From an uncultured Planctomycetia bacterium (GTDB lineage Bacteria; Omnitrophota; Gorgyraeia; 2-01-FULL-45-10; JAHFGN01): 64,000 nucleotides of DNA. Where the stretch lies: assembly GCA_964354545.1 (NCBI GenBank), contig CAYHAE010000003.1, positions 25,019 through 89,018 of the forward strand, in the 5' to 3' direction. Positions 30,001 to 54,000 of the stretch are shown one piece after another. Positions within the stretch are counted from its first letter, which is position 1. The number at the start of each line of letters is the position of its first letter. A program made the translations under genes and the position numbers. The notes beneath the pieces are model-generated. The model had not been told where the DNA came from. It worked only from the letters and a program-made list of their open reading frames with translations, and ran no database searches.

Positions 30001-33000
30001 ATCCCGAGAGGGCCAACCTCGTCCATCACAATATCAACAGCTTCGATGTTCCTTCCCTGAAGATGGGAGATGCCTACTACATCGTGACCGAGGAGACGGT
30101 CAATGCCCACTCTTTCACCACCGCCTACACGGCGAAACCCAAGAGCTATCAGAGCTTCATAGACCCTGACACGCAGACCGAGATGGTGGAGATAGAGGGT
30201 GACCGCTATACCGTCAAGGATCCTGCCACCCAGAAGATAGCCCTCAAGAAGGTCATCGCGTCGCCGCTCACCACGACTCAGGACAAGGTGGTCGAGCTGG
30301 GAGGCGTGTTCTATCGCGTCGAAGAGTACGGGCCAGACGGCATCCACCTCTTCAGGGACATCCACGATTCAACGGTCGTCTACCCTTCCTCGAAAGACCC
30401 AGACACCCAGAAAGAGACGGTCACGATAGACGGGCTCCTGTACACCGTCACGGTCGACGGCGACGACATATCCCTCTCGGCAACCGGAAAACAGTACGAG
30501 ATCGCGAAGAACGAATTCGTCATCGACGGGAGGTACTACAAGATCGAGTACAAGGACCTTTCGCAATCATATCAATCGTATTACGGTGCCTACAACGTGC
30601 CCAATAAAGTCGGATATTACGTCTTCGACGATTTCACCAAGAAGTACACCTCTGAAAAGGCGGTGAGGCAGTATACCGACTCCTCCACCTTTACTTCGGG
30701 CAAGGGCTTCCTCACCGGCTCGGGTCTCTCGACCTCCTTCTATAAGACGCGGATCACGATCAACCACAAAGACTACTATATAATCTCCAAGGACAGCGAC
30801 CCGTACAAGTTCGCGCTGCAGGAGGCGATCAGCGAGAGCGAGAGCGCGCGATTGATCACGGTGGGCGACGTCACCTACGCGGTGAAGGACGAGATGCCGA
30901 AGAACGAGGACGAAAGCGTCGAATCGAGGTACAGCGACGGCTACATCGAGGGGAGCTACGAGAACTACATCTCAAACGTGAAGTCCAACACCTACTCCTT
31001 CAGCGACGGGACGAAGGTATACTACTCGAATCCTGCCACGGGAGTAGTAGAACTCGGCGACGGGAAGCTCTACGTGGTGAAGGTCGACGACGCAACAGGC
31101 ACCATCACGCTCGAAGAGAAGGATTCGGCGAGCGCCAATGTGCAGGTGCTCAAAGTCGACGGAAGGCTCTATACCGTGACGGTCGATCCGACCGACCCGA
31201 TGCACATGTTCAAGTTCAACGACGGCTACGGCGAATATACCTCTGCAAAGGACACATTCGGCTTCTATACAGACGGCAATACACTCTACTCCGCGCCCGA
31301 CATATATGAGAACAACACGCAGGGGATGAAGGGCCGGGAGACGAGGGAGAATTTCGAGGGTTACACGAAGGAGAACCTCTTCGGCAAACAGTGGGACTAT
31401 CGGACATATTGGATGGGAGGCGATCAGTCCACGGAAGTGCAGAAGTATTCAAGGAACGAGATGAACTACAAGTTCACCATCGCCCAGGACGGCGAATACG
31501 ATGTGGGGCTCTTCGCCAAGACGTACGAGAATATGGAGTCGCCTCTCAGGAGGAGGCTCGAGGGGTGGAGTACGTATCGCGACGAACCGCCCACGGACGT
31601 GAACTACATCTTCCAGGTATGGGTGGACGGACTGTCGAGGGGTACCTTCTCCCTCACTGTGGACGACAAGGACTTCAAGAAGGGCTTCATCAAGCTCAAC
31701 CTCGATGCGGGAGAGCACGACATAAAGATAAGCTGGGACCTCCCGGCGAAAGCGGGCGAGCAATATGATGAGGAGATGTGGGGGATGACGAATTACTACA
31801 GCCAGAGAGACCTCTTCGGGGACCTGAGCCTCCAGGTGAAGGACGTATTTATAGGCGCGCCGGAGATAGACAAGGCCGATCTGAACGGCGACCTCAAGGT
31901 GGATGGCGCAGACCTCGCTATCCTTACGGCAAATCTGAACAAGACGGGGAAGGTGAGCGAGATGTACCGGGACGAGGTGATCCGGCTCAACAACAAGTTC
32001 TATTACTATACGGACAACGGCGATAATACGTTCACCTTTACCGGAGCGGAGGGCGCCGCGACGAGCACTCTGAACCGCAAGGTGATGATAGACGGCACCA
32101 CGTATAACGTCTACACGTTTGAGCGCGCTCGAGACGTCACGGAGGACGATGGCAGCCGCGACCACTACTTCTCACTCGGCGGGACGGTCTACTACATCGT
32201 GAAGATAGACGATCATATGTACGGGGCGTATGAGTTGCGGAACGGGGCGAGCGTCATCACCGTGAATTACGATTGGGATAGAAGCGGATACTACGTCACC
32301 CTCGACCAGGAATATGAGATCGAGAGTCTCGTGTCACAGCCCGTGAAGTACATCATGCTGAAGGAGTACGCCCTCGCGAGCGCCATAATCGCGGATAAGA
32401 TAATCGAGGTGGCGGGCACAAGGTACCTCGTGACCGCAAATCCTGACGGCTCGTTCAACTTCGACGACCAGCATAATCCTATCGTCACCTCGGACGGCCC
32501 CACGGGCAGGATCATCCTCAACAATACACTCCTCTACCTCTCGTCCGATCCGATGACCAAGGACGTGACGCTCGACGAGATCATACTGAACGGGAAACCG
32601 CTTGCCACCTCCAAGATCATGCAGGTCGGAGGGAAGTTCTACGGCGTCGAGAAGGTATTTACGGGCAGAGGCACCCAGTTCACCTACAGGTTCTATTCCG
32701 ACCTCTCGGCGTATGAAGATGCGGTCATGGAGAACGACACGAGAGGCACTGTCATCCTGGACGGCAGGAACTACATCCTCAGCGTTGACGGAAACGGAGC
32801 CATCACATTGCAGGAGGCGCTCATCGCCGTGGAGTCCGTCACTAAACAGAAGATAAATATAGGAGGGACAGAGTATCTCATCATCGATAACGGGGACGGG
32901 ACGTTCACCTTCGGCTCACGCTACGACGCCTTCACGAGCGCCGCCGACGATTCAGTCCAGATCAACGGCCAGGTCTACTACATCTTCACCAACCGCACGA

Positions 33001-36000
33001 CAGGGACGTTCTCGCTTATCAAAGAGATGCCCATAAGGAGCGAGGCAGCGGGAGACCTGGCGGTCGTCATACCGACGAAGATCTACGGAGAGACGGCGAA
33101 GAGCTATATCTTCGAAGAGACGACGCCCGGGATATATCAGTTCTACGACGCGGACAAGAACCCTGTCGCGACGAGCACGCCGGAAAAGACCATCACGCTC
33201 AACTCAATTATGTACGATATCACGATCGAGGGCGCAGGCCTTGTGCTCACCGAGAGGCCTCTTGAGAGCGTCGCGGTAGACGGCAAATTCCTCCCCACGT
33301 ACGCCCCCGACGGGAAGAGCTATGCGCGGATCTATACGGTGACCGAGGTCTCTCCCGGAGTATTCGTATTCGATGACGGCCATACCCAGACCCCGAGCCA
33401 GCCCGACAACACCGTCAGGCTGGATGACATCGTCTATGAGATATCAAAGGCGGGCGAGAGGATCATGCTCGCCAAGAAGCCGCTCAGGTCCGTGACGGCA
33501 ACTGACGTTCAATCGGTAAAACTGGACGGCGTCCAGTACGACGTGACGACGGTCGCAGAGAAGTACGTCTTCTCAGACGGCATCAATCCTTCCGTGACCT
33601 CGCCCGATAATCTGACGGTGACGCTCAAGGGACACGACTATAAGATAGAGCTCGTGAGCGACAAGATAGTGCTTTCAGAGCTTGTCCAGACGATAAACAT
33701 TGCCGCAGCGAACTGGATAATGGTGGGCACCACGTATTTCCTCGTCACCAAGGGTACCGGTGTGGGTGAGTACATACTGGACGACGGGACGACTACATGG
33801 AACGTAGTCGTGGGAGGCACCTATAACATCATGGGCATTACCTACCTGGTACTCGAGAACGCCACGCAGGACTTCGTATTGAAGAGCCAGCGGATAACGG
33901 TGGGGACGAGCGCCACAGGCACGTTCATAAAAGTGGACAGCGACATCCTGAGGGTCACGCAGGCAGGGAGCATCTACACGTTCAATGACGGGGTCCAGGA
34001 TGTAGGGAGCGGACAGATCGGCCAGACGATCAACTGGCACAATATGACATTCACGATCAAAGGGACGGGTCTCTCCGACATCAAGCTGGATGGGGGCACT
34101 GTGGTCTCATCGAACCACCAGTGCTATACGAGCACCTTTAACTACGAGTACGGCGGCATTTATATAAACGGACTGCAATACGCGTGGGTATGGTGGTTCA
34201 GCGCAGGGGAGCACTTCTCTTTCACTCGCAGCGGCCACACGGATTACGCCGAGGAGCGGGGCGGTATCTGGTATGTGACGATAGACACCACCGAGTACCA
34301 GGTCGAAGGGGATCCTTCTTACACAGGCAGCCCCTATCCTCACTACTTCGAGTTGAGAGAAGGGATTCCGCCCTCTACGCGTGTCACCGTGCCCGCAATG
34401 GTCTACGCGAATGACTACTATGCCTTGAGCGGGACGGCGGGCTCCTACATCATGGATAATGCTGCCTCTGTCATAACGTTCGACGCGGACAACAAGACGA
34501 CCCTCGGCGGTAAGCCCTATCAGATCACAGGGACATATCCGAGCGCCCTGGTTCTGGAAGGGCCTGCCTCCGACTCCGTTCACATATCCGACACCCAGAT
34601 CATCCTCGAAGGCACCACGTACACGATCTCCTACAGCGACAGCACCTATACCCTCGATGACGGGGCAGGCCACGTCTACACCGCGCAGGTCGGCACGCCG
34701 GTCGTCATAAATGACATCGCCTACGACGTCTTCGGTTCGGGCGACAACAACATAAGCCTCGAGACGACGATACCCGGAGTTGCGAGCACGAGGGTCACCG
34801 ACAGGGTGCTGAATGTCGCCGGCAACCTCGTCTCGGTCACATTCGACGGCTCGTCCTTCACCTTCCACAACGGCCGCGAGGTAATGGGAAGCAGCATGAT
34901 AGGCGGGTCGTTCGTCTATGGAGGGAAATCGTACAGGGTCACGGGCACAAGCCTCGCCGATGTGCAGCTTGAGAAGTTGAATATTGTGACCATGTACAGC
35001 CATACTACGTCTACCAGTCCGACAACCCCACCGTATACCTCTGCATCCGGCAGTTTCGAGAAAGGCGGCGAGCCATGGGGATGGATGTATTACGACTACG
35101 GCGACGGCGATCGGTCTCTCACCATCAGCCGGTACTCAACAATGTATTCAGCGGGCTATGACTCGGAAACCCACACATGGTGGGTAGACGTAAATCTTGT
35201 CTATTATGAGGTCGAGGGCGATCCTGCCATGGGCGCGATCGACTTGAGGGCATGGGTGACGAGCACCCTCGAAACCGGTTCCGTGATACGGTTCAGGGAC
35301 GACCTCTATACGTTCACAGGCACGACCGGCAGTTATGCGATCAATGACGGGACCGCCACGTGGCCCTTTGACGCCTCCGATGAAGCCACCTTCGGTAATA
35401 TGCGATACAACGTGACGGCACCGGAGGAGATAACGGGTCCTTATGCTACTTCCATAAAGGCGGCGAACAACGTCATCGCCGTGAAGGGGAAGAGATATTT
35501 CGTGCAATTCGATGATTTCAGCCTTCGTTATATGTTCATAAATAACACCGACTTCCACATAAGCGAATATTTCACTGACTTGGTGGATTTCGGCGACGGC
35601 GATATCTACAAGGCCTCCGGAAGGGAGAATGCGGTGCTCACCAGGGTCCTCGTCTCAGACATCAATAATGACGGCAGCGTGACGGTAGCTGACGAGACCA
35701 TCATCATGACCGCACTCACAGGCGACTACGTCCTTGCCGCAGACCTGGACCACGACGGGAACATAGACTGGAACGATGTCGACATCTTCAGGCGCGAGAG
35801 GGATTCGACCGGATACTGGCAGAAGATGGACGTCGATGGGACGGTCTACTATGCGACGCGGCGCACCGACGGCATCTACCGGTTCTTCGACCTGGTCAAT
35901 TCGCCTGTGGATGCGAACGCGACCAACTCGAGGGTCGCCCTGAAAGGCATCGAATACATCATGAGCATCAACGGCGGGACCGGTGAGCTCAGCCTTGTCG

Positions 36001-39000
36001 AGGATAGAAAGGCGGACCTCAACAACGACGGGAACCTCGATGACTACGACAGGACCATCCTGCAGAACGCGATGGGGTCGTGCTACATCCCGCCTAAGGA
36101 CGGAACGGATTTCACCACTACGTCCCAATATGTAGATGAATACCTCTTCCTGGAGGATGCTTTCATGCACTGGGGCGATGACGCCATGGCAGATGGAGGC
36201 GGCGACCCGGCTTATCCGCGATACCTCGACTACATCTTTACCACGACCAGCGCGGGTAACTTCGATATCGGCCTCGATGTGAAGGCAGCAGGCAGCTGGA
36301 GGAACGACTACATACCTCCGGCCAGCTATTCCTACAATATAGAGGTCTATGTGGACGGACAGAGTATCGGGACCCTCTGGATCTCTGCAACCGGCGATGC
36401 CTACTCCGAAGGCCTTATAAATCTGGACTTGAGCGCGGGCAGCCACACAGTACGGTTCGAGTGGCACAACCTCGACCAGATGGTCGCGCTCAGGATCGGA
36501 AGGATGGTTCTGAGGTCGGGCAATTACGACGCGAACGCGGATATCAATCAGGACCTGAGGGTCGATGAGCTCGATGCCGCGATCTTCAACGAGCAGTTCA
36601 AGTCCACCACGGACGGGGAGCTCATCACGCTGAGGAACGACAGGTTCTATGTGACCAAAGCGGGAACGACCTATAGATTCGATGACGTGGGCAGGATCCT
36701 CGCGACAGAGGATAGCGCTGTCACCAGTTACCACACAGAAGGCCGCTTCGAAATGAGCACATTTTCGACGTCAGTCTCGTGGAGCTACGATGGGACGAAC
36801 CTCACGATGTCGTATTACGATTTCATGCATGCTCATGGCCAGGTAACGACGGATGCGTACAAGGTGAGCAACACCTGGTACGTGGAGATAGCGGGTACCG
36901 TCTACAAGGTCCTCGGCGACCCCTCGCGCGAGGCAATAAATCTTGACAACGCAGGGCAGCTCTCATCGGCTAACAGCAGGGTGACGCTCAACAGGAGGTC
37001 CGGCCATTTCGTCTTCTACGGGAACCTGTGGAACTGGTCCTATGAATATAACGGGACGACCGAGACGCTCACCGTAAAGGACGCCGTTGCATATAAGAGG
37101 AACAGTACCTGGTACGTGGACCTCGCGGCGGGACCCGTCACCACCACTTACGAGGTCTCAGGCAACCCGTCCGTCGATGCCATCAATTTAAAAGTCGCGC
37201 CGATCTACAGCGTGCCGGACGGAAGTATGGTGAACCTCGGTGGGCAGGACTTCTTCATAACGCTCGTTGGGGACAAGGTGAAGCTCACCGAGGACCAGAT
37301 CGCGGACGTGAACGGCGACTTCAAGGTGGACACGCTCGATGAGCAGGCAATAACCAGCGTGCTCAACTCCTCCTTGATCCCCGATAAGGCGGCCAAGAAT
37401 GTGTTTGGCGCTTATGGGACTGACTGGGTAGGGTTCTATTGGCCTACGGGTGAAGATTCGATGGTCGCTTACCATGACGGGGATCATGGTCCGGAGCCGG
37501 GAGACGAGCCGGAGCACTTCCTCACCTATGAGTTCGACGTAAACGGTGCAGGGAACTACGACCTCGGGTTCACCGCGAGGGCGCGTAACGGAACTACGCT
37601 GCCCGACGGCTATACGAGCTATGCGATAGAGGTCTTCATAGACGGTGTCTCGGCGGGCGTTATCAACGTCGTAGCAGACCAGGAATACCAGACAGGGACG
37701 AAGAACCTTGCGATCCAGCGGGGCATTCACAGGATAAAGTTCAAGTGGGCGAATCCCGTGGACTTCTCCAATATTGAGATAGGCAGGGTCTTCGTGAGGG
37801 ACACCCAGTACGATGCGGTCTTCGACCTCAATAAGGATAAGAAGATAGATTACCTCGACCTCGACCTCTTCGATACCTATCGGGTCAGAACAGACGGGTC
37901 GCAGCACATACGGTTGGAAGGGACAGAGTATTTCGCGAAGAGACAGAGGGACGGTTCCTACCGCTTCGACGACGGGGTCACGACGCCTGCTGTAAGCGAC
38001 CCCGCCACGCACAAGGTCACGCTCGAGGGCCACGACTTCTTCATCGTCATCGATAGGTCCACGGGTAAGATGGAGCTCGTGCAGGACATGGACATCGACA
38101 TCACGAACGACGGTCTCATCGACAAGAACGACGACATAGCGATGCAGAACGCCATGACCGCGTTGCAGCAAAAGAAAGGCGCGCAGGAGTACAGGAGATT
38201 GAGCGCCGTGAAAGACCCGTCGTATCCGTACGGCTGGGGGTGGACGGTCCTCGGCGATTCGATCGAGGAAGGCGAGAGCGAACGGATGATGTACATGGAA
38301 GGCTTTGGCCAAGCCCTGTGGGCGGAATACAAGTTCTACGTAGAAAAGGAAGGGGATTACCAGGTCGGCCTGTCAGCGCAGAACCTCACCGAGAACACGA
38401 AACCGATCGACTGGAAGAGCTGGGATAACGTGAATAACCTCTCGACCCCGATATTCACCCAGGAAGGCACTATGCAGATGAATATACTGCGCAGGAACCC
38501 TTACTTCTACTTCGGCAATCAATCGTGGGGATACTGGATGAACAGGGTCTTCGATCCTGAGACGAAATCATGGGTGCAGGAGACCCTCGGCATCGATCCC
38601 ACGATGAAGGTCGTGAAGATAAGGATGCGCTCGAACAACGGGACGAAGGCCAAGGTCTACTGGAACAGGGAAACGGATCAGCAGGGCGTCTGGTCTGAAG
38701 ACAGGTCAGACTGGTTCATGATCAACGCGGACAACGAGATGCACACCTATACCTTGGACTTCACGGACAATCCAAACTGGAGCGGGAAGATAACCGAACT
38801 GAGGATAGACCCTGTTGAAGACGAAACGGTCGAGGTAGGCGCTATCGAGATAGAGTCGATAAGCATCCACATGACACGCGACTCTGGCCCCGTGAAGGTA
38901 TGGGGCGTCAATCCTAACGCCACGGAGCCCGCGTCGTTCTACTTCGCGGTCCATACTGACGGCAACACGGACGCCTATCAGCTGGGCGACATCAAGGGAT

Positions 39001-42000
39001 ACGCGAAGGTGACGTGGGACAACGAGGAATACCGGCGCGGAGCCGCGGAGGTCCACCTCACGCCCGGCTGGCACAGCGTCGTCTACGAGTGGCTCAACGA
39101 TTACGGGATCGAATCCCGGATATCGGTGAAGGACGTTTTCATAGCCCAGGTCAACGAGAAGGCGGACTTCAACAAGGACCTCTGGATCGACGAGACGGAC
39201 TACACGCTCTATAGTTCGAAGAAGGCGGTGAACCTCTCGTCCGACTCCGTAGACCTCGGCGGGAAGTACTACAACATGGCGAAGACCGCGGACGGGAAGG
39301 CGTTCGAGCTCACCACGTTCAAGGACGGCTCCGCCACGTTCACGAGCGACGTCTACACGAAGAGGGTGCGGATCAACGATGCCGACTTCGTCGTCATCTT
39401 GGACCGTACCACGGGAGGGGTGAAGCTCGGCCAGCCGAGCTTGGAATCGACGAGACGCGCAGACTCCGCACTCACCGTCCAGGGAGGGCGCTATGAAGTA
39501 TTGGAATTCCCGGACAGCACGTTCACCTTCACGAAGACCGATACGATATCCGAAGAGACGAGCAAGGTGGTCGTCGACAACGGCGTCACCCGCAACATCA
39601 AGGTCGTCATGGTGAACGGGATCGAATACGAGATATTGCAGCACCTGGATGGCCGCATCTCGCTCATCTCCCGCGAGATGGAGCCGGTGAGCGCGTACTC
39701 GAACGCGAGCAGCGCAAAATCGAAATTCGTGGTCGACGGCGTTGAGGTGTACGACGGTTACTGGAAGAATGGATTCAACTTCGTGGCGATAGATCCGAGG
39801 ACGAAAGAGCTCACACTGAGGAACTTCGATATCGCCACCGACGCCAACCTCAACGCGGAGATGATACGGTTCATCAACGGGCTGCCGAGGGGTACGCACG
39901 TGCTCGTGTCGATCCAGCAAGACGGGTACACGCACCTGTGGAACGAGACGCGCCTTGCGTTCCAATCCCTGGGGAGCGAGTTCGCCCGATACATAGATTC
40001 GACGAATGACAGGTGGGTGCTGATAGGGAGGAAGGGTGCAGAGATAGGCAGCGTGCCCGAGACCCTCACCCAGGGTAATACCCTGGCAACGTTAGATTCA
40101 CAGGTTACGATCGTCGGCAACAAGGTCTGGACGAGCATGGAAGACAAGGGCAACATAATCCTCATCGACGGAGAGAAGTACGCGCTGCGCACCGTGGACG
40201 AGAAGCTCACCATCATGAAAGATACCGCTTCCACAAGCTTCAAGGACATTGACGACGGAAAGACAAAAGTAGACATAGGCGGGACCGTCTATGAAATGAC
40301 AAAAGAGACAGACGGGAGCGTGACGCTCACCTTCGGCGCCGAGACGAGCACCAAAGTCGCAGACGAGGTGATCGACATCGCGGGGACCGCATACGACGTG
40401 ACTGTGAGCGGGAACGTGTATACGTTCTCAGACGGCGTCAACCCGACGTCCACAAGCGCGGGGAACTACGTGGAGCTTTCCGGGGTTACCTATGAGATCA
40501 TCCCGCAGGCAGACGGCGGGATACTGTTGCGCAGAAGGGATATGCCCCAGTATGCGGAAGTCACCGACGCCTCGCAGTACCTCATTACGCTCGACGGCAC
40601 TGTCTACTACGCGACGCCCATCGACAATCCACAGCCTCCGCCCGCGAAACTCTACACCTTCTCGGACGGCACAAATACCTTCACTTCCTTTATGGACGGC
40701 GCGGTGCAGAAGGTGCAGATCAACGACCTCGTATACGAGGTCTCCCTGGACAGGAAGGGCAATGTCATGCTGCGCCACCTCGAGGCGATGAGCTCGAACG
40801 TCGCGGACCAGCAGGTCACGATCGAAGGGAGGCCCTTCTACATCCTCACTAATGACGATGGGACCTTTACGTTCACCAATATCACGGCGGACGAGGTCTA
40901 CACGTCCCGATTCGAGACCGACGGCACCAACCTCATACCTGTGGCCGACATCGAGATGAAGGACGGGACGTATTCCACCTTCGAGATCTTCCAGGACTAT
41001 TCGACGGGAACCGTCACGCTCACCGAGCGGGTGACGCCTGCCGAGTCCGATGTGAACAAACTGGTGACGCTCAAGGGCGAGACGTACCAGATGAAGAAGA
41101 TCGGCACACGCGGCGTCTACGCGTTCATCGATAAGTATGGAGCGGAGAAGTGGACGAGGCTCCTGAACGAGACGCGGCTCATAGAGCTCGGCGGATATAC
41201 CTACGAGATCAAGGACAACACGAAGCTCAAGCTCGAGCAGCCCAGGCTGGTGGACAAGGTGATGCTGATCGGCGATTTCGACGGCAACGGGCGGATCGAC
41301 CTGCAGGACGTGAGCGCCTTCGTGAGGATCGGAGGGTACTATAAGGATGTGAACGGCGACGGCTCCGTTGACGACCTGGATGTTGAGGCCCTGAGGAGGA
41401 TCATATGGTTCCAGACCGTCGGCATCGTCACCCCGCAGAATATCGCCTCGCTCATGAAGAGGGCCGATGTGAACAAGGACAAGGTGGTGGACTTCAGGGA
41501 CGCGAACGACCTGATGGAGGTGGTGTACAATAGGTACGACATCGGCGGCAGCGACGATGCGGACGGGGACAGGATAGCGGACGCGATCGAGACCGCCCTC
41601 TACGGGGACCTCTCGGTCGACATGTCCCAGGAAGGCATCGCGACCGACTCGGACGGCGATACCATCGCTGACATCGTCGAAAAGCTCACCTATGGGGACC
41701 TCACCTGCGACACGATCGCCGATGCAGACGGCGACGGTATCGACGATACCCTCGAGGTGAAGATATGGGGTTCCACGATCGCGACAAACTCGCTCTCATA
41801 TGATTCTGATCACGACGGCGTCGCCGACATCGTCGAGGTGCTCCTCTACGGCGACCTCACCACCGCGGCTCAGGGCGATGACCTGGACAGGGACGGAGTT
41901 GCAGACGCGATCGAGTCTGCCATCTACGACAGCCTCTCGGCCGACATGTTCGAGAATGGCATCGCGACCGATTCGGACGGAGACGGGATAGCGGACATCG

Positions 42001-45000
42001 TCGAAAAACTCACCTATGGAAACCTGACCCGTATCTCGATCCTCGATGTGGATGGCGACGGCATAGACGATACCCTCGAGACAAGACTATGGGGCTCCAC
42101 GGCCGTGACGAACGACCTCTCGTATGACTCTGACCACGACGGCGTCGCCGATGTCGTCGAAATGCTCCTCTACACCAGCCTCTTGACCCCGGGTCTCGGC
42201 GTGGGCGACAGGCCGGATGGAAAGACAGACGCACGTGATTACGCATGGCTCAATGTGATATTGAGCGAGATAAGGAACGGGAGGGCCCTGCAGCCGTACA
42301 TCCTCGAACGGGCAGATGTGAACAAGGACGGCAGGGTAGACGAGACAGACAGGGGCCTCCTCTTCGACGTCCTCACGAAAGAGCTGAACTTCGACAAGAA
42401 AGACCGCGCGCTTAACGCCGCAGACCTTAGGCGGCTCCACGATATCATCCACGCACTGAGCCTCGGCGTCACCGATCTGGAGATCAAGCTGGCTGACGTG
42501 ACGAAGGACGGCACAGTGGACGCTAAGGACGCGGAGGCTATCAGGTATGCGATCGAGAAGTATCCTCTCCTGAGGGTGAGGGCGGACACCAACGGCGACG
42601 GCGTGCTGAATATGCAGGACGTGATAGGGATGCAGGAGATCGCCAACAGGATACAGGAGAGGGAACAGCTTGACGTCCGGGAGCTCATGAGGGCCGATAT
42701 CAACAAGGACGGCCTCGTCAATCAACAGGATATCACCGTCCTCCAGAACGCGATCAGGGGCCACGTTGACCTCACAGGAGACGGCTACGCGACCGCGACC
42801 GATGTCGTACGCCTGATCGATGTCCTGGAGTTCCTCGCCATAGGCATGGAACAGTCGAAGGACCTCCTTCTCAGGCTCGCGGGCGCGGTCACGAGCGAGC
42901 ACGTCGCGGACCAGATGGTGAGGTTGGATGACATGCTCTACAGCGTGACGAAGGACTCGCACAACAGGTACGTCTTCTACGACGGCACAAAGAGCTACAC
43001 CGCCTACCTCGGGCTGAACTTCGTCGAGATAGAGAACGTCATCTACGACGTCTTCGAGCTCGAATACGGGAGGGTGAAGCTCATCGAGCAGCACGTGAAG
43101 AGCTCAATGATCGACGCGGCACACCTGAAGCTCGGCACGAAGACGTATTCTGTGACACCCATCGGCGAGGCGTTCATATTCCAGGAAGAGGGGACGTCCA
43201 ATACATGGGAGGCTATGCCGGATGAGACCGTGCGGATCGACGACGTCGACTATGTGGTGGTCAAGGACGAGGCGCACCTGACGGCGATGCTTGTCGGTGT
43301 CCACCTCGAGAGCACCCATGTCACGGACGGGAGGATAAAGCTTGAAGGCGTGGAATACGACATCATACGCGACAGGATCCACGATACATATGAGATACGC
43401 GCGTTAGATTCCGGCCTCATCGATACGGTGAAACAAGAGGGCCAGATCATCACCATAAACGGAGAAGCGTTCACCGCGCATATCAATCCTGCGCTCGGAA
43501 GGATCACTCTCGTGAAGACGACCGAAGAGTCCGCGATGATCGCCGACCAGGTCATCATGCTCGAAGGGTCGATCTGCAAGGTGAACGACCTTCGGAACGG
43601 GAGTTATCTATTCACCGACATGAAGGACGGGACGACCTTCGTGAGCGACGCGGCGACGCGCAAGGTCGCCATAAAAGGGACCTCATACGACGTCACAAAA
43701 GACCTCTTCACCGGAGGCGTGACCCTGATCCAGACCCACCGGGAGAGCTCGCGGCTCTCCAATCAGACGATAAGGGTCAACCACGCCACCTACGAGGTGG
43801 ACTACAACCTCGACGGGACCTATACCTTCACCCGCGATTACGACGGAGCGACCGCGTCGAGCAAGCTCTCCAAGCCGGTCGAGGTGAAGCTGCCGGACGA
43901 CCTCTTATACGATATCAAGATGGACTACGATACGGGCAGGATAAAGCTCGTCCAGAGATACAGGGTCTTGGAATCCGGCTCCAATTCGCAGACAGGAAAA
44001 GAGGAGCTCAGGACCGATGAGGAAACCGAAGGAGGCGTTGCCCTCACGCTCAACGACAACGGCACCTTCTCCGTCGGAGGAGAGACGAGCGAATACTATC
44101 CGTCGCTGCCCGAGGGGATGGATGCAGGGCCCGGCTACGGCGGCTGGCAGGCCCCGAGGAGCACCCTCGAGAACCCGAACCTGATATGGATGGGAGGCAG
44201 CCTCTTCAACATCTATTATAACCCCGATACGGGCCACTTCAGGCTGGAGGAGGTTCACCACGTATCGGAGACCCTATTCGGCGAGCTCATAGAGTTCAAC
44301 GGCGAGCCATATGAGGTGGTGAGGAACGATGACGGCACCTTCACGTTCATAGGGCTCTACAAGAGCTATACCTCAAACGCCGATCTCAACAAAGTAAATA
44401 TCGACGGCGTCGTGGCCGATGTCATCGTCGATGTCTATTCCGGAGAGATAAGGTTAGAGGAAGAGCATTCGAAGTTCTCGAAGGGCCTCTACGACGGGAT
44501 CGCGAAAGTGGGCGCCAAAGAATACTACATAGTCCTGGACAGGAAGGAAGGCGCCGTCACCCTCATAGACTATTCGACCTCGCGCGACCCGCTCCTCACG
44601 AGCTCTAAGCCGCATGCGACAACGGACGATGCTGACGGAGACGGCATCTCGGACAAGGACGAGGCCATCCTGGGCACACGCGCGACGATAGCCGATAGCG
44701 ACGGTGACGGGTTCAGCGATGGGTATGAGGCGCGCATGAAGACGGACCCGCTCGACAAGGATTCACATCCAAAGGTCACGATACTGGACACCGATAAGGA
44801 TGGCGTGAGCGATTATGATGAGCTCACGTTCGGCACCGACCGCTATTCGCCCGACTCCGATAAAGACGGGTTCTCAGACGGAGAGGAGGGGAGGCTGGGC
44901 ACGGATCCTCTCAACAAGAGCTCCGTACCTGAGCCGACGACCGTTGACAGCGACGGCGACGGGCTCAGCGACGCCACGGAGCAGCGCCTGAAGACCGATC

Positions 45001-48000
45001 CGAGGAAACCCGATACTGACGGAGACGGGTTCTCGGACGGCGAAGAGGTCCTCGACAGGAAGTCCAGCCCTCTCCGCGCGGAGCTCGTGGGAAGCGGCGC
45101 GGGGGCCTCGCGCCAGATCTATGTCGGCACCAACGCGAACAGGATCATAAAATTCGACGAGCACGGGAACAGGATAGCGGAGGTCGTTACGGGCGCTAAC
45201 GGCATACCGATCGCCGCATGGGATTCCCAGCAAGGCAGCGTCACCGTATATGAAAATCCAGGCGCCGGGATGATCCAAGGGACGACCTATGATAGATACG
45301 GCGCGGCGGTGAACAACTTCAGCGGTTACCTTGGCGAGGACGGTTCCCTCTACATGAGCGCTCCGCAGGAAGGAGAGGGGGCCTACTACCAGTATCAGCC
45401 CGGAAATTATGCCTCCCTGAGCGAACCCGATGCGATGGTGCGGGGAAGCTACAGCACGTCCACAGGGAGTTTCAACCCATCAAGGACGGTTGAGTCGTAT
45501 CGGACCGTAGAAGGCCAGAGGCAGATCGGCCCACAGACATTTGACTTCAGCCAGATGGGAGGCGCGCAGGAGATCGCGCAGTATGACGAGCGTGGGCGCA
45601 TGGCGGGAACACTCTACGCCAATGGAGCGGGCGATCCGATCGCCATGTGGAATGTCGAGGAAGAGATGCTCACCGTCTACAGCGGCTCTTCTTCCGTAGG
45701 CAGCGCAGGGGCCAGGGAGTTCATCGCCACCACTTATGACGAGGCCGGAGAGGAGCTCGGCACCTCTACGGTGTACGGTGTCGACGGCAAGTACTACACG
45801 CCCGTCCAAGGCAGAGAGGGCGAGTACCTTGTGTACGATTCCGCGAAGATGTACGCGCCCGAGGCGAAGATCTACGGCGCCTTCAATCAAAATTCAGGCC
45901 TATTCAACGGGGAAGATGTCGAGAAGTACCGAGAGGTCGTGGGGTCGCAGACGGTAGGCGGGAGGGCGCTCTCGATCGATGAGGGCACGGAGGTCGCGAG
46001 GTTCGATCCCGCAACCGGCGCCGAGATGGCCAGGATGTACATGGACAAGGAAGGGAGGCCCCTCGCCCAACTGGATACCGACACCCGCGACGTGACCTTC
46101 TACACAGGACACGCGACCGACTCCGCCACAGGTACCACCGAAGTAATAGGTACCACTTACGATGAGGCGGGCAATGTGGTGAGGCGCACCGAAGGCTCCT
46201 ACAGCACGGACGGGACCGTTGTCCAGGAACGGACGGTAGCGGAATACGCGTATGGCATCACCGGCATCTACACGGCCGGCTCGCAGCCGGTGTCGGTTGA
46301 GAATGCCATCAGGATAGTTGAGTACGATGAGTACCAGAATAGGATACGAGAGGTCTACGCCCGCCAGGATGGCAAGCCTCTCACCATGGTCGATTACAGA
46401 GACAACCTCACTATGACGTGCGGCGCCTACACGACGACAGGCTCTGCGGGAACAGAGACGTTCACGGTCACTGCCTATGACGCGGCAGGGGCATTGGTCC
46501 GTGCCGCCGCCGGATTCACCGGCGCGAACAATTCCATCTTCGTGCCCACGGAAGCGCCTAATACCTACTACAGGTACCGGTACCAGTCCGGCAGCATAGA
46601 GTCCCTGGAAGAGCCCGATGCAGTGTTACAGGGAAGTTATAACAGGGTCCTTGGGAGGTTCAGCGTCTCGAAGATGGTTGAAGAGTATCAGGATATCGAG
46701 GGCCAGAAAGAGATCGGTCCGATGACCTTCGAGTTCAGCCAGGCAGAAGGCGCGAAGGAGATCACGCAGTATGACGAGCTTGGCCGCAGGGCAGGAATGT
46801 TCTATGCGGATAAAGAAGGCGACCCGCTCGTCACGTGGGACGTCGAGAAGAAAGCGCTCACCGTCTACAGCGATCCTACTCCTGTGGGCAGCGCAGGGGC
46901 CAAAGAGTTCACCGCCACCACCTATAGCGAGGCCGGAGAGGAACTCGGGACCTCTACCGTGTACGGCGACGACGGCACGTACTACGCACCCACCCCAGGC
47001 AGAGAGGGAGAGTATCTCGTATACGATCCTGACAAGATGTACAGGCCCGATGGGAAATTCAACGGCGCCTTCAACGAGGACGCGGGCAAGTTCTACGGGA
47101 CGGAGGTCGAGAAGTATAGATACGGCGTGATAGGGCCGCAGTCGGAAGGCACGAGGACGATACCGATGGACGAAGAGGGCATGATGGTCACGCGGTTCGA
47201 TCCTCTCTCCGGCGCCGAGACGAGCAGGGTCTACACGGATATGACAGGGCGGATGGTCGCCGCGGTCGACGTCCCGTCCGACGAGGTGACCCTCTACAGC
47301 AACTATGCCTTCGATGAGGCCACAGGCACCACCACGATGAGAGGCGCCACGTATGATGAGACAGGCAACGTGATGAGGCTCAGCCGGGGCTCCTACACCA
47401 CCACCGCGAGCATCATCGAAACGACCGTCGTGGAATCTCAGTACGGCATTACAGGCATATACACGGTCGGCGCCCAGCTCGTGACGCTCGAGGATGCCGT
47501 CAGGATGGTCCAGTATGATGAGTACTCCAGGAAGACGAAGGAGATCTACACCCGCCAGGATGGCAAGCCGCTCGCCGTGGTCGATTACAAGAATAATCTT
47601 ACCACTATATATGGCTCCTATACGACGACAGGCACTACGGGAACAGAGACGTTCATCGTGAACACATATGACGGCGTCGTATACAGGCCCGATTATCAAC
47701 CGATAACGTCTACGACGTATACCGGGGCGAAGGTGGTGAGGGTGGAAGACACGATATACGATGTGACGACCGTCAACGGAAAGTATGTATTCTCCAACGG
47801 CGTGGACACGCCCGTGACCTCGCCCGATAACCTGACGGTGAACCTCAACGGGCACGACTATAATATAGAGCTCGTGGCTGACCAGCTTGTGCTCTCAGAA
47901 CGCGGCGATGCGGCGCATACCACTGTCGCGAACTGGGTAAGGGTAAATAACACGGACGTTCTCGCCATGGCAGGTGCTCAGCAGGGGCAGTACGTGTTCG

Positions 48001-51000
48001 ACGACGGGACGACCACGCAGACCGCCGTCAACGGAGACGTCATCGCCATCGGCGGCAGCAACTATAAGGTCGCCGTGGGCAATACGCTGGACTTCGAAAT
48101 GAAGAGCCAGAGGGAAACGGTAGGGGAGACCGACGAGGGCACGTTCATAAGAGTGCACGACGCCACTACTGCTGGAGGGACCGCTCCCAGGTACGACATC
48201 ATGAAGGTCACGGAAGATAACGGCGTCTATACGTTCGCTGTCGGAGAAGGGCCCGGAGTGACCGGCGTAATACTGCAGGGACGGATCGGAGATTCATTTG
48301 ATACGGGCGGATACCTTACGTACTGGATAAAGCACCCCTACACGACCATCACTATCACCGGGACAGGGCTCTCCGATATCGGGCTTAGTTCAGACTCAGG
48401 GACCGGCAACTGGATCTGGACCGACCACATCAGCGGGGAGGTCGTACATGTGCCCGGAGTTCTCGTTACGGACGATCCTGACTCCACCGGGGGAGGTTCG
48501 AGCACAAATGACTACTATGAATTAAAGAAGTACCCGTTCCACCGCTATGCAATGAACGGTGGCGGATATCTTGTCAGCTACTATCTGGAAAACTCGATCG
48601 GTATCTTGGAGTTCGATGAATGGGATAATATGAGCTTCGATCTCGAAGGGCCCATCTTCCTCACGGGTCTCAGCACGCCTCAAAGAGACTCGACGCTGAT
48701 AAGGCCCATCTCGGATTCCGTGCATCTATCAGGCACCTCAGTGACGGTCGACATTCTCGGAAGCCTGGAGACCTATGCCCTTTCATACACTCCCGCCACT
48801 AAGACCTATACGCTCGATGACGGCGCAGGCCACGTCTACAGTGCCCGGGCCGGCACCCCGCTCACGATAAACCATTGGCGGTGGCCTTTTGGAGGATATT
48901 CCATCACGTATGATATCTCCGGTTCAGGGTTCACCAAGGTGGGACTCGAGACAACAAGCGGACCCTACGCGCTCTCCGCTGGGTCAGACGCCACTTTTGT
49001 CGATGTCGCAGGCCAGAGGTATTCTATGACATATGACGGCTCGTTGAATCAATTCACATTTGAAAATGCGAGCGGCATCTATACGACACATGTTGTTCAG
49101 CTTGCGCAGGCTGAGCACGTAGTGGATTTCGGAGAAGGAAAGGTCTACATAGTCACCCAAGAGCCGCCCTGGCCCAGGGGCGCCGCGCTCCATAAAATAC
49201 TTAACACAGATCTGAATGGGGACCATGCGGTCACGCAGGCGGACGAGGATATCGTCATGGCCGCGCTCACCGGCGCCTACACGACCGCGGCAGATCTTGA
49301 TCATGATGACAACATAGACTGGGACGATGTCGACATATTCAGGAGCAGGAGGGATTCGACGGCGAACTGGACGAAGCTGAACGTCAACGACGTAGACTAC
49401 TATGCGATGCAGCGCAACAACATCTACCGGTTCTTCGACAGGGTACGTGCTCCCGTCGATGCGAACGCTGCCAACACGCGCGTGGTCCTCGATGACGTCA
49501 AATATGACATGGCAGGGCTCGATCTGACCGAGGTGACAGTAGTAAGCGCTGCCGACGGCTACACCGGCGACGGCACTACCCTCTATATTTCCACAGGCAC
49601 ACCCGGCGAGTATAACAAATATGAGTACATGCGCGGAATAATAAGGTCAACGACGGACACCGCCGCCATAACAGCGAGGCTGTGGAACTCGATATACGAT
49701 GTGGCGATCGTCGGCGGAAAGTATGTCTTCTCCAACGGCGTAGACGCGTCCGTGACCTCGCCCGATAACCTGATCGTGACACTCAAGGGACACGATTACA
49801 GGATAGAGCAGGCGGGGAGCGAGCTCGTGCTCTCAGAGCTCACCCAGACGGTGAATTCTGTTGCCGCGAACCTTATAGAGGTGGCGTACGGCTACTACGG
49901 CTCAAACCATGCCAATATCCTCGTCACGCAGAGCGCGCAGCCGGGAAAGTACGACCTCGACGACGGGACGGCCACACATACCGTAGCCAGCGGCGACCTT
50001 GTCTACCTTGGGGGTGCCGGAAATTATTGGTTCTACGCAGGTAACGCGCTGGACTTCGCATTGAAGAGCCAGAGGCAGGCGTTGGGGACGAAACTCAGCG
50101 GGACGGTCCTGAAATTATACGAGCAGACCAGTCCTCAATACGTAGACATCCTTAACGTCACGGAAGAAAGCGGGATTTACACATTCTATAAAGGGGCTCA
50201 GGTTGTGGGAAGCGGGAGGATCGGAGATACATTCTCAATTCGCCTTCCTGCTACTGGCGGAACCACGGGTGCCAAGATCGTCGGGACGGGCCTTTTCAAT
50301 ATCGGGCTCGTGAACGCATTCACGGGAGAACCTTTCACCTCGCGCGCATTCGGCACGTACATATACGTGCCCGGATCCCTCGTCCTGCGCTCTAAGGACT
50401 GGCCCTACACCGAAGTGACGGCTACAGGCGGCGTCCTGGAAGTGGCACAATCCGGTTTCGGCGGCGGCAACTATTGCCTAAAGACCCCCGACGGAAACTA
50501 TGTCCTGGAGTTCGATGCGAACAATAGGGCCATGGACAGAATCTCGGGTATCATAGAGCTCACAGGCGTCGGTACCTGGCCGCCTGACCCGCAGCTGGTA
50601 AAAGGCATCTCTGATTTCTCCTTTGAGAACGGCTGGGCAAACCACGAGGGGAATCTAAGCGCCTCATACAATCCCGCAACCTCGAGCTATTCGTTCACGA
50701 TCGGAGGCCAGGCATACACTGCCAAGGCCGGCACCCCGCTCACGATCACATACGGGACTTACAGCATCACATATGATGTATTCGGTTCGGGGCTCAACAA
50801 GGTGGGGTTGCAGGGCATGGTAGGACAGGCGTTCCTCCAGTCTGACAGCGCCCAATCCTTAGTTACTGTCGCGGGGACCAAGTGGGCAGCCGGATATGAC
50901 AGCTCCTCCGATCGATATACATTCATGCGCGTGAACGCCTCCTACACTACCGACGCATCGTACAAGGTGAGGTTCGGGAGCGATGAGAGCGTCTATACTG

Positions 51001-54000
51001 TCTCCGGAGGGGCGAACCCCGTGCTCACCCGGTTCCTCATCTCAGACCTGGATAATAGCGGCTCTATCACGGGCGCGGATGAGGGCATCATCACCGCCGC
51101 GCTTACCGGCCTCTACACGACCGCGGCAGACCTCGACCAGGACGGCAGCGTTGAGTGGGACGATGTCGACATATTCAGGCGGGAGAGGGATCGGACAGAG
51201 TACTGGACGAAGATAAACCTCAACGCCAAGGACTACTATGTGATGCAGCGCAACGGTATCTATCGGTTCTTCGACAGGGTACGTGCGCCGGTCGATGCGA
51301 ACGCGGACAATACGCTCGTGACCCTCAATAATGTCCCGTATGGCATGGCGGGGCTCGATCTGACCGAGATACGAATGCTCCAGCCGGAAGACCTGAACAT
51401 GGATCCCGCCTTTGCGCTCGCACTGGTGCAGGGAGGGTACAACGGGTTCACAGGGACATTCGGTGTCTCGAGGACGGTCGAGAAGTATTATAAGCTCGAC
51501 GGGACGCAGTCAATAGGCCAGGAAGATCTCGACTCATATGTGGAGAGCGGCACAAAGACCGAACGGTACGATAACTTCGGCAGGCTCACGGAGACCCTCT
51601 ACACCGATGCCAGAGGCGTACTGCGCGGCGTGCAGGATGCGCAGGGGAACGCCACCGTCTATGATAGGTATGCGTCGGCCGGTGCCGCAGGCGGTGCGCG
51701 CGTGATCGGCACCACCTACGATTCCGCAGGGAACGAGGCGCAGAAGGTCGACGGCTACTACGACGGGGCCGGCACCTTCTACGCTTCGACAGATGAGGCG
51801 GGGAGATACCTCACATATCAGTACCAGCCGGATAGGGTCGTCACCATGACCAATCCTGGGTCGAAGGTGGCGGGCTCGTTCGATACGGAACAGGGTACGT
51901 TCGACACGGCGTGGGTCGCAGAGACCTATCAGCGCGGCCTGTGGGGCCAGACGAGGATAGGCTCGCAGGATGTTTCATTGCAGAATGCCATGCGGACCAG
52001 ATATCTTGACGAACACGGCGCTCTCGTTGAGGAAGTGTACGAGACGACCGACAAAAAGCCGGTCGCCGAGTATGACGCGCAGCAGGGCGAAGTCACCGTG
52101 TACAGGGACTATGCGCAAGTCACGGACTCTGACATCGTAAAGGTGAACAAAGAGACTTACGATGACCTTGGGGCTATCGTAAGGGGTTCCAAGGGCTATT
52201 ACGATGGCTCGACCGGAGAGGTCAGGGAATACGCCGTTGATATCTACGAGTACGGCGTCTCAGGCCAGGTCACCATAGGGACGAAGACACTCGAGGGAGT
52301 AGCGAACGCCACCAGGATCACCGAGTATGACGGAGAAGGACATAAGACAGGCGAAGAGGTCGTCGCCCAGGACAGAAGGCCGCTCGCCGTATGGGATGCT
52401 GAGCAGAACGTCACCGCGCTCTATGGACAATATGTTCAGGTAGGGACTTCTGCCACTCAGAGCGTAGAGGTGAAGACCTACGGGAGCACCGGGAACATGA
52501 TAGCGAGCACAACGGGTTACTACATCAATAACGCTGTCTATAAACCCGTTTCCGGGGACGCCTACCTCAAGTATCAGGTCGACAGGCCTGGCATGTTGAA
52601 GGAGGCAACCGCAAAGGTAAAGGCGACGGTAGATAACACCTCGGGGCTGTCTGAAGACCGGCTGTATGAGTCGTACGAACGCGACCTCACGGGGACCGGC
52701 ACGGTTACAATCGGCGCAGAAGAGCGCCCCATACAACTAGATGATGCGATGGCGATCACCTACTACGATACAAACGGCTTCGAAAGAGGGACCGTATACG
52801 TCGATGAGGCCGAAAGGCCGATCGTGGCGATAGACGCCCAGAAGAATGCCGTGACAATGTACGAATATAAACCAGGCGCGGTCGCAGATTCGATAGAAGT
52901 AAAAGCAGTAACCTATGGGGTCGGCGGGCAGCCCACCGATTATTCGAGCGGTTACTATGATTCCGCGAACGACACGCTCTATATGAAGGCAGAGATCGCA
53001 GATACGTACCTCACGTACGGGACAGACGACGTCACTTCTCTCGGCGAACCGGCCGCAAAGGTGCAGGCAACTGTGGATGGGACAACGGGGGCGGTGACCG
53101 AGACGCGTACAATGGAAATATATAGCAAAGTCGCAGGCATCTACACGATCGGCTCGCAGCAATTCACCTTCAGTACCGGGACCACCAAGGCTACCATAGT
53201 GGATGAAACCGGAAATCCGACAGGTGAATTCTATGTCGCTCAAAACGGCGCTCCGGTCGCCGCGCTTGACCGCGGGACGAATGCCGTGACCTCATTCAGC
53301 GCCTACACCCCGACTACCGGCCGCGTGAACGCCGCGACCTATGACACCAGCGGGAACGAGGTGCGGAATTCGATCGGTTACTATAGTGAAGTGAATAGAC
53401 AGCTTGAGGAGAGCAGAATTGCCACATACGTATATGACGTGACAGGCCCGCAGGTGTATGGCGCGAACGTCATTGTGGCGGACGAATCCGTCAGCATCGA
53501 CTTGCTGAATAAAGCAGGAGAGACGACAGGAGAATTATTCCTCACAGAGGACAAGAAGCCGATAGGCCTCGCGGACCTTCAGGATAATACCGTGACAAAG
53601 TACAGCGGTTATACTCCCACCGGAACAGGAAGCACGACAGAGCAGCTCACCATTACAAAATACGGAGGCAACGGAGACCCGCTCAAGACCTCTATCGGGT
53701 ATTATAAGGAAGGCTTTGTCTATGTGCCCGTCGCAGGCCCCGCAAGCCCCGGTCAACAGGCAGACTACACCCAGTATCGCGCGGACAATATGCAGGCCCC
53801 GCTCGCGACCGTCCGCGGCATGATCAATCCAACCTCGAACGAATTTCAGGTGACCGGGGAGACAAAGCAGACATTCGAGTACGGATTGGTGGGTGCACAG
53901 CAGATGGGTCCAGTCGCGGTCGAGGCGGACGATTTCGCGAGGGCCATAGACTATGATAATTTCGGGAATCCGATCGGCGAGACGTTCATGGGTCCGGACG

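Follow-up and report, generated by a model that had tools for sequence, protein, structure and literature searches.

Three Old Paralogous Copies of a Composite Module within a Giant Gene of Omnitrophota

Introduction

A 64,000-nucleotide (nt) stretch of contig CAYHAE010000003.1 (assembly GCA_964354545.1, positions 25,019 to 89,018 of the forward strand), from an uncultured bacterium placed in the Omnitrophota and hereafter called the window, contains three similar segments within a single very long reading frame. The segment is called A and its copies A1, A2 and A3; A2 and A3 lie side by side within an array of YD-type motifs. The locus raises the question of whether the three segments are copies of one composite module, how old the copying is, and how two of the copies came to lie inside a different repeat array. 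An earlier reading of the letters alone (the sequence-only reading) had proposed a relatively recent intragenic triplication. The triplication is real and is among the younger large repeats of the gene, yet it is ancient in absolute terms. All positions below are those of the window.

Dockerin-type giant proteins of Omnitrophota combine dockerin, TSP3 and ILEI domains, are known from fragmented assemblies, and have a proposed role in attachment, according to West-Roberts et al. 2023 (bioRxiv 10.1101/2023.11.21.568195). The same study describes RHS-like antiparallel beta structures in these giants, and ascribes the fragmentation of their genes in short-read assemblies to repeats. A dockerin and TSP3 cluster is reported in a 2026 preprint on complete Omnitrophota genomes (10.64898/2026.06.07.730766), where the repeat architectures of the class are described as old at the nucleotide level and not freshly expanded.

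Three Collinear Copies of Segment A

The evidence supports the three intervals as true paralogues that arose from large internal duplications. When the intervals were compared with the whole translation by BLASTP, A2 matched A3 with 43% identity over 632 columns (E 4e-129) and A1 with 35% identity over 520 columns (E 2e-67), and the next-best match of any A interval elsewhere in the gene had an E-value of 2e-19. Aligned three ways with MAFFT, the copies are collinear over the whole span between the first and last hairpin motifs, with a mean column identity of 54%. Moreover, hidden Markov models (HMMs) of the N-terminal (N), middle and C-terminal (C) sub-modules score 219-363 bits on the three copies (363, 296 and 311 bits on A2; 345, 234 and 300 bits on A3) whereas no other part of the 21,332-amino-acid (aa) protein scores above 32 bits; therefore, the similarity is not just that of short shared motifs. 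A1 is longer because it contains X', an internal paralogue of its first ~300 aa (unit X), and this internal repeat aligns 33537-34502 with 34419-35390. The boundaries of all parts are given in Table 1.

The sequence-only reading had placed three collinear copies near these positions, which is confirmed, with A3 starting 41 nt before its proposed start at 49694. The motifs that it had quoted are all present, namely VTSPDNLxVxLxGHDY, GTGLS/FxIxL, GTPxxI...YDV/IxGSG, and YYxxxRxxIYRFFDxVxxPVDANAxN. Each copy carries the expected Ca-loop pair, composed of 12-residue motifs 28 aa apart, and the beta region is rich in T, S, G and Y as described (37-38% vs. 29% gene-wide). That reading had also named a likeness limited to short motifs as a possible outcome of alignment; the similarity is instead full-length, as the E-values of 4e-129 and 2e-67 and the HMM contrast show.

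Anatomy of the A Module

The A module is composed largely of a ~45-aa hairpin unit with the consensus IxxxGxxYxVxxxxxGxYxFxDG...VxxxGxxYxI. An iterated HMM seeded with the first unit of the three copies detects at least 91 such units in nt 1-52000, of which A1 has seven, A2 five and A3 four; none lies in the YD-like array, in the sequence that follows it, or anywhere in 52000-64000. Upstream of the array, the unit is the main constituent of the protein. Both the opening unit of the module (GKYVFSNGVDxxVTSPDNLxVxLxGHDYxIE) and the closing one (IYRFFDRVRAPVDANAxNTxVxLxxVxY) are instances of it and are the best conserved parts of the module. Between them lie further hairpin units, a variable T/S/G/Y-rich stretch, and a contiguous dockerin-like double Ca loop.

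The Ca loops consist of DINNDGSVTVAD and DLDHDGNIDWND in A1, DLNGDHAVTQAD and DLDHDDNIDWDD in A2, and DLDNSGSITGAD and DLDQDGSVEWDD in A3, and the ligands D1, D/N3, D/N/S5 and D12 are conserved in all three copies. In A1, the Pfam model Dockerin_1 (PF00404) scores 24.6 bits, above its cut-off of 22.9. Three features speak for maintenance of the modules and against their decay: the Ca ligands are conserved in every copy, the frame is intact, and the terminal units are the more strongly conserved. The N and middle parts of A match no family in Pfam or NCBIfam. Profile searches of the PDB returned nothing significant for the A profile, the best match being the dockerin 2ccl_B (E 0.57), and no significant relative for a 41-sequence profile of the hairpin unit.

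Remoter versions of this arrangement, with hairpin units, a dockerin and a YYxxxxxGxYxF unit, recur many times in the LamG-carrying Omnitrophota giant fragments P0002-P0005. Directly upstream of A1, at 33105-33449, two more hairpin units (GIYQFYDADKNPVATSTPEKTITLNSIMYDITIEG... and GVFVFDDGHTQTPSQPDNTVRLDDIVYEISKAG...) resemble the terminal unit of A and are kept in the orthologue described below. The sequence before A1 also resembles the one before A3, which is the C-terminal end of A2, with an E-value of 2e-25 across the junction.

Nucleotide Divergence and Age

In codon alignments, A2 and A3 share 62.5% nt identity and 48% aligned aa identity, with a synonymous divergence (dS) of 0.75. The corresponding values are 59.7%, 45% and 1.05 for A1 and A2, and 56.6%, 42% and 0.99 for A1 and A3. 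The ratio of nonsynonymous to synonymous divergence (dN/dS) is 0.4-0.6 and is not relied on, since dS is near saturation. Divergence among the copies is about the same as that between the gene and its orthologue in another Omnitrophota metagenome-assembled genome (MAG), where aa identity is 35-49%. With dS of 0.75-1.05 and aa identity of 42-48%, the duplication is therefore not relatively recent.

High nt identity is confined to a small part of the module. When A2 and A3 are compared in 150-nt segments, 6% of these reach 80%, with a maximum of 82% at 49311-49520; between A1 and either A2 or A3 no such segment reaches 80%, and the maximum is 77%. The most similar tract of the family by BLASTN (Table 1) covers the second dockerin loop and the terminal hairpin unit. 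Two other repeats in the window are no more diverged than the A copies. The strongest nt repeat is a pair of YD-like superunits (45414-46482 and 46602-47673), which are 71-72% identical over 1083 nt with a dS of 0.67, and a tandem repeat at 41561-42201 has a period of 324 nt, 1.9 copies, 75-79% nt identity and a dS of 0.55. The latter is a block of DxDxDG Ca-loop repeats (DSDGD, DADGDG, DSDHDG) and is younger than the A2/A3 pair. An 18-nt tandem repeat at 56571-56715 (8.2 copies, 81% matches), which encodes (GAYPGG)n, follows the last YD-like unit directly and precedes a TSP3 block.

The fraction of identical residues that use the same codon varies along the module. In the N part it is 0.65-0.70 for all three pairs, where 0.43 is expected from codon usage. 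In the middle part it is 0.60 for A2/A3, and for A1 against A2 or A3 it is at chance (0.43-0.46 vs. 0.42 expected). All three pairs have values of 0.40-0.50 in the C1 part, where 0.41-0.44 is expected, and in the dockerin and terminal unit the fraction is 0.77 for A2/A3 and 0.63 for the A1 pairs.

These values correct the sequence-only reading on identity and timing. Its local nt identity of about 80-85% is in fact 57-63%, with only ~300 nt reaching 80%. Its statement that this identity is much higher than between other repeats is contradicted by the superunit pair and the 41561 tandem (dS 0.67 and 0.55 vs. 0.75 for A2/A3). Large internal duplications with true paralogues remain from its proposal, whereas the relatively recent timing is not tenable given dS values of 0.75-1.05, aa identities of 42-48%, and A1 middle-part codons at chance. 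The recombination or assembly hazard that it had deduced is likewise unfounded. About 38% of positions differ, and the longest exact string common to two A copies is 19-24 nt, depending on the pair; no exact direct repeat anywhere in the window exceeds the 27 nt of one in the (GAYPGG)n tract. With a longest shared string of 24 nt there is therefore nothing to collapse and scarcely any substrate for homologous recombination.

Orthologue and Order of Events

A profile of the three copies has only 17 matches among 1.84 billion representative proteins. The first eight of these were looked up; seven are named Candidatus Omnitrophota or Omnitrophica by their source and are marked partial, and the eighth is a JGI hypothetical protein. 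Among the 1.84 billion proteins, only one further full copy of the A module was found, in PIU40730.1 (P0001). Two pattern scans of GTDB genomes and one of JGI metagenomes had as their sole match contig PEWW01000008.1, which encodes P0001, and word-indexed protein searches with A2 and the left YD block as queries gave no matches.

P0001 is collinear with 27681-36290 of the window, and PIU40335.1 (P0006) with 37806-44855, ending just before the YD array; their aa identity to the window is 35-49%. Both come from Candidatus Omnitrophica bacterium CG07_land_8_20_14_0_80_50_8 (CG07), a Crystal Geyser MAG. The single A-type module of P0001 (aa 2138-3222) occupies the same place as A1, with flanks that match on either side, and is a long form with three X-type units. 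Two extra stretches of ~170 aa in P0001 (aa ~1420-1596 and ~1834-2006), with sequence such as ...GWSDN...LGGYG.FG...FDYYFI..W..., have no counterpart at 32051-33117 of the window; therefore, the orthologous giant genes differ by whole-module gain or loss.

The X units were compared in a neighbour-joining (NJ) tree rooted on the internal paralogue X', the units of which from the two organisms cluster with 100% bootstrap support. The X unit of the MAG branches first, A1+A2+A3 are grouped with 90%, and A2+A3 with 100%, so that the proposed tandem pair is recovered as sisters in every bootstrap. Rooted in this way, the tree suggests that the CG07 lineage had split off before the triplication took place.

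The Flanking YD-like Array

The A2/A3 pair separates two blocks of a different repeat. The regions 45015-47675 and 51417-56580 are mutually homologous with 23-30% identity, and both blocks are tiled by superunits of ~396 aa, as defined by a profile of units u1 and u2. Unit u2 ends at profile position 361 of 398, before A2, and the last ~26-37 aa of the unit are absent. The array resumes 28 nt downstream of A3 with superunit u3, which starts at profile position 7. A2 and A3 are therefore placed precisely at the boundary between superunits, where they stand in for most of one linker. Of the 17 YDxxG[RNQKE] motifs in the window, 15 are within 45582-47352 or 51567-56328, and none is between the blocks. 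The location of A2 and A3 inside the YD-motif array, which the sequence-only reading had claimed, is thus borne out, and to the precision of a superunit boundary.

An HMM of the nine inter-unit linkers has the consensus GYYxxxxxxYxxxxxxxxYxxYQxxxxxxLxxPxAxV. Outside the YD blocks it matches the A2/A3 spacer at 49557-49628 (GYTGDGTTLYISTGTPGEYNKYEY) over model positions 1-23, with an independent E-value (i-E) of 0.024, and otherwise a site at 27927 with an i-E of 1.0. The spacer thus resembles the first half of a YD linker and may be its remnant; the match is statistically weak, and is suggestive but not strong. A linker remnant in the spacer fits an in-place tandem duplication of a linker piece plus an A module. 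It also fits the alternative, offered by the sequence-only reading, in which the duplicated stretch included part of the YD region.

The array has no match at E <= 10 to the RHS_repeat or YD-repeat models of Pfam or NCBIfam. A profile of five superunits has no significant match in the PDB and retrieves no Rhs or teneurin chain from it, and the RHS core motif PxxxxDPxGL is absent within the window. An AlphaFold2 model of u1, built from five paralogous rows, is all antiparallel beta, with a predicted local distance difference test score (pLDDT) of 87.2 and a predicted template modelling score (pTM) of 0.74. The eight best PDB matches of this model in Foldseek are Rhs and teneurin shells, with E-values of 7e-7 to 4e-5 and template modelling (TM) scores of at most 0.14. 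The term YD array is accordingly sound as a description of motifs, whereas membership in the RHS/YD family is backed by no sequence model and is weakly suggested by the fold. The array is therefore called YD-like here, and its kinship with RHS proteins is only weakly suggested by comparison of the predicted fold. The array is probably what West-Roberts et al. describe as RHS-like antiparallel beta structures.

The Surrounding Giant Gene

Frame 3 of the plus strand is open from nt 3 to 63998 (21,332 codons, zero stops) and runs past both window ends, and the other five frames contain 174 to 1,140 stops each. The stop-free frame means that the window is the inside of a single giant gene, which matches the Omnitrophota Dockerin-type class. 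Pfam matches Dockerin_1 in almost all stretches tested, with 68-126 bits summed in four segments of the window. The other Pfam matches are TSP3_bac (78 bits), ILEI (67 bits) and DUF4214, and a regular-expression count gives 74 EF-hand-type Ca loops in the window. On the minus strand, one antisense frame with 174 stops contains open reading frames (ORFs) of up to 631 aa (e.g., 41562-43454, 46626-47855 and 35655-36734), which overlap A copies and could mislead gene callers. These ORFs look like by-products of a coding strand rich in G+C at third codon positions (GC3 0.76), and not like genes.

Table 1. Coordinates of the A copies, their parts, and the neighbouring YD-like blocks in the window
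Feature	Position	Strand	Remarks
A1	33495-36050	+	852 aa, long form
A1 unit X	33495-34418	+	
A1 unit X'	34419-35432	+	internal paralogue of X
A1 C module	35433-35966	+	Ca loops 35658-35693 and 35742-35777
YD-like left block	45132-47681	+	partial u0 45132-45401, u1 45414-46601, u2 46602-47681
A2	47715-49562	+	616 aa, short form
A2 N part	47715-48407	+	
A2 middle part	48408-48956	+	
A2 C module	48957-49514	+	Ca loops 49209-49244 and 49293-49328
A2/A3 spacer	49563-49652	+	30 aa
A3	49653-51392	+	580 aa, short form
A3 N part	49653-50327	+	
A3 middle part	50331-50819	+	
A3 C module	50820-51350	+	Ca loops 51045-51080 and 51129-51164
Most similar nt tract of the family	49231-49532 vs. 51067-51368	+	302 nt, 80.5% (BLASTN)
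YD-like right block	51420-56561	+	several full and partial ~396-aa superunits, from profile position 7

Discussion

Segment A is probably a composite module, or super-repeat, of an extracellular Dockerin-type giant protein of Omnitrophota, and would have reached its three copies through two duplications. The duplication of X and X' would have come first and the split of the two lineages second. Subsequently, a copy of an A1-like module, minus X', would have entered the linker that joins two ~396-aa superunits of the YD-like beta ribbon, ~12 kb downstream, and this copy, along with a piece of the YD linker, would have been duplicated in tandem to give A2 and A3. Both duplications of A would then be younger than the split from the MAG lineage yet old, with synonymous sites near saturation. 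Illegitimate or unequal recombination between dispersed hairpin units may have been the mechanism. Homology, age and placement are shown by the data and the order of events is read from the rooted tree, whereas mechanism and function are inferred. In the later divergence, purifying selection would have held the terminal units and Ca ligands, and the middle would have evolved freely. The most likely role of the module, as far as the protein class alone indicates, would be that of a Ca2+-stabilised structural, spacer or docking element in a very long filament outside the cell, serving to attach to other cells.

Several observations weigh against this account. Dockerin_1 does not match A2 and scores 13.6 bits on A3, below the cut-off of 22.9, and Pfam finds no cohesin domain in the window. 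The AlphaFold2 model of A2 (three rows) is all-beta save for the dockerin helices, but its pLDDT is 48.9 and the fold of the module is not established. As for the order of events, the pattern scans of GTDB and JGI found no orthologue that covers the YD array or A2/A3, and the lineage specificity of A2 and A3 therefore rests on one NJ tree, in which the relevant bootstrap is 90% and the middle region is partly poorly aligned. Moreover, the N part looks star-like, with aa identities of 47-50% and the same-codon fractions equally high in all three pairs, while in the middle part A2/A3 alone is above chance. A mosaic of this kind might likewise result from an older duplication that partial gene conversion later overwrote.

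In that alternative history, the duplication predates the CG07 split, and later gene conversion re-homogenised the N- and C-terminal parts of the three copies; it is unlikely, though less so than the other alternatives. It would account for same-codon fractions that are high in the N part (0.65-0.70) and in the dockerin and terminal unit (0.63-0.77) but near chance in the middle part for A1 against A2 or A3 and in the C1 part for all pairs, and for the X' unit being present in A1 and the MAG copy and not in A2 or A3. The C module of A1 is also 46% identical to the MAG copy vs. 45% to A2/A3. However, identical tracts do not exceed 24 nt, so any conversion must itself be old, and the codon identity of the conserved parts may reflect better alignment and codon bias at the GC3 noted above. 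Stronger constraint at the ends of the module would give a similar picture, and the rooted NJ tree unites A1, A2 and A3 at 90%. The mosaic signal comes from only four sequences, too few to separate conversion from constraint or alignment effects.

The remaining alternatives concern the reality or the nature of the repeats, and each has some superficial appeal. A gene that contains some 91 related units of ~45 aa, numerous dockerin loops and, in many places, weak partial matches to the A sub-modules might have assembled the same hairpin and dockerin units independently, without any segmental duplication. This is very improbable, as the collinearity is full-length and crosses non-motif regions with E-values to 1e-129, the score of each sub-module on the three copies is ~10 times its highest score at other sites, high-scoring segment pairs connect the copies at the nucleotide level, and same-codon use is above chance. 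Motif-only similarity was ruled out by BLASTP, the collinear alignment and the sub-module HMM contrast. That the A2/A3 tandem is an assembly artefact, or that the locus is prone to collapse, would agree with the fragmentation of Dockerin-type giant genes in short-read assemblies owing to repeats (bioRxiv 10.1101/2023.11.21.568195), and the CG07 orthologue is itself broken over contigs of 7-10 kb. Artefactual duplicates are expected to be near-identical, whereas 37.5% of aligned nucleotides differ between A2 and A3 with many indels, the longest exact string is 24 nt among the A copies and 27 nt in the whole window, and an intact reading frame crosses both junctions. Such an artefact or collapse is thus extremely unlikely, and was rejected on the divergence and the shortness of the shared exact strings. 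Finally, two tracts of ~300 nt with 80% identity in the gene of a surface protein recall the template and variable repeats of a diversity-generating retroelement, a reading that is hardly credible here. The mismatches (A 18, C 16, G 13, T 12) fall on all codon positions without adenine bias, the window is a single ORF and hence has no room for a reverse transcriptase, and weaker similarity extends over the entire 560-aa module. The flat mismatch spectrum of the 302-nt tract and the single-ORF window exclude a target of this kind.

Segment A, taken as a composite module, can be compared with several known systems. The gene resembles the Dockerin-type giants in its ORF of more than 21,000 codons, its many dockerin and EF-hand repeats, and its bacterial TSP3 and ILEI domains. 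Its long unannotated all-beta regions, including the RHS-like antiparallel beta array, its relatives among Omnitrophota MAG fragments, and a repeat architecture that is old at the nt level are further likenesses. In contrast, an A-type module was not found described in the available parts of 10.1101/2023.11.21.568195 and 10.64898/2026.06.07.730766. Like type I dockerins (PF00404), the module has two contiguous 12-residue loops (DxD/NxD/N/SGxΦxxxD), ~28 aa apart and each followed by a helix. However, its dockerin lies within the protein between hairpin units, and not at the terminus of an enzyme as in cellulosomal proteins; in addition, A2 is without a Pfam match, A3 is below threshold, and no cohesin partner is known here.

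In the titin A-band and in giant adhesins, small domains are duplicated as a block and give rise to a higher-order period. Segment A is similar to these super-repeats of giant proteins, titin and giant bacterial adhesins alike, in that a multi-domain block was duplicated as a unit and its order was kept despite divergence. It differs from titin-type super-repeats in having three copies only, one of them dispersed, and in lying with the other two inside a different repeat array. The YD-like array shares regular YDxxG motifs and a confident antiparallel-beta model with the RHS/YD shells of Tc toxins (TcB/TcC), type VI secretion system Rhs effectors and teneurins. It differs from them in its ~396-aa superunits, in lacking an Rhs sequence match in Pfam, NCBIfam and the PDB, and in lacking PxxxxDPxGL. 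RHS and teneurin shells also bear foreign domains inserted in or beside the repeat array.

A bolder reading would take the A module as an undescribed domain combination, present in two Omnitrophota genomes so far, and the paired insertion as a functional Ca2+-dependent docking or hinge station in a beta filament, the ends of which would be kept alike by occasional gene conversion. Its logic would be comparable to that of the Tc-toxin and teneurin YD shells, in which foreign domains are set in as the A pair is set in the YD-like ribbon. This reading is rather improbable.

The locus offers a worked example of how Omnitrophota giant genes grow at three nested levels, namely ~45-aa units, ~300-aa X units, and modules of 560-850 aa. 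A module contains one, two or three X units, and modules were duplicated both at a distance and side by side, one of them arriving in phase within a different repeat array. The duplications are dated relative to speciation, in agreement with the ancient repeat architectures reported in 10.64898/2026.06.07.730766. For practical purposes, this region can be safely assembled and used for mapping reads. Two unannotated domains deserve definition, namely the A module and the YD-like superunit, the latter having a confident model and no close solved relative. The known biology of these proteins is unchanged by the finding, which is a new example of a known evolutionary mode in a known class of giant proteins.

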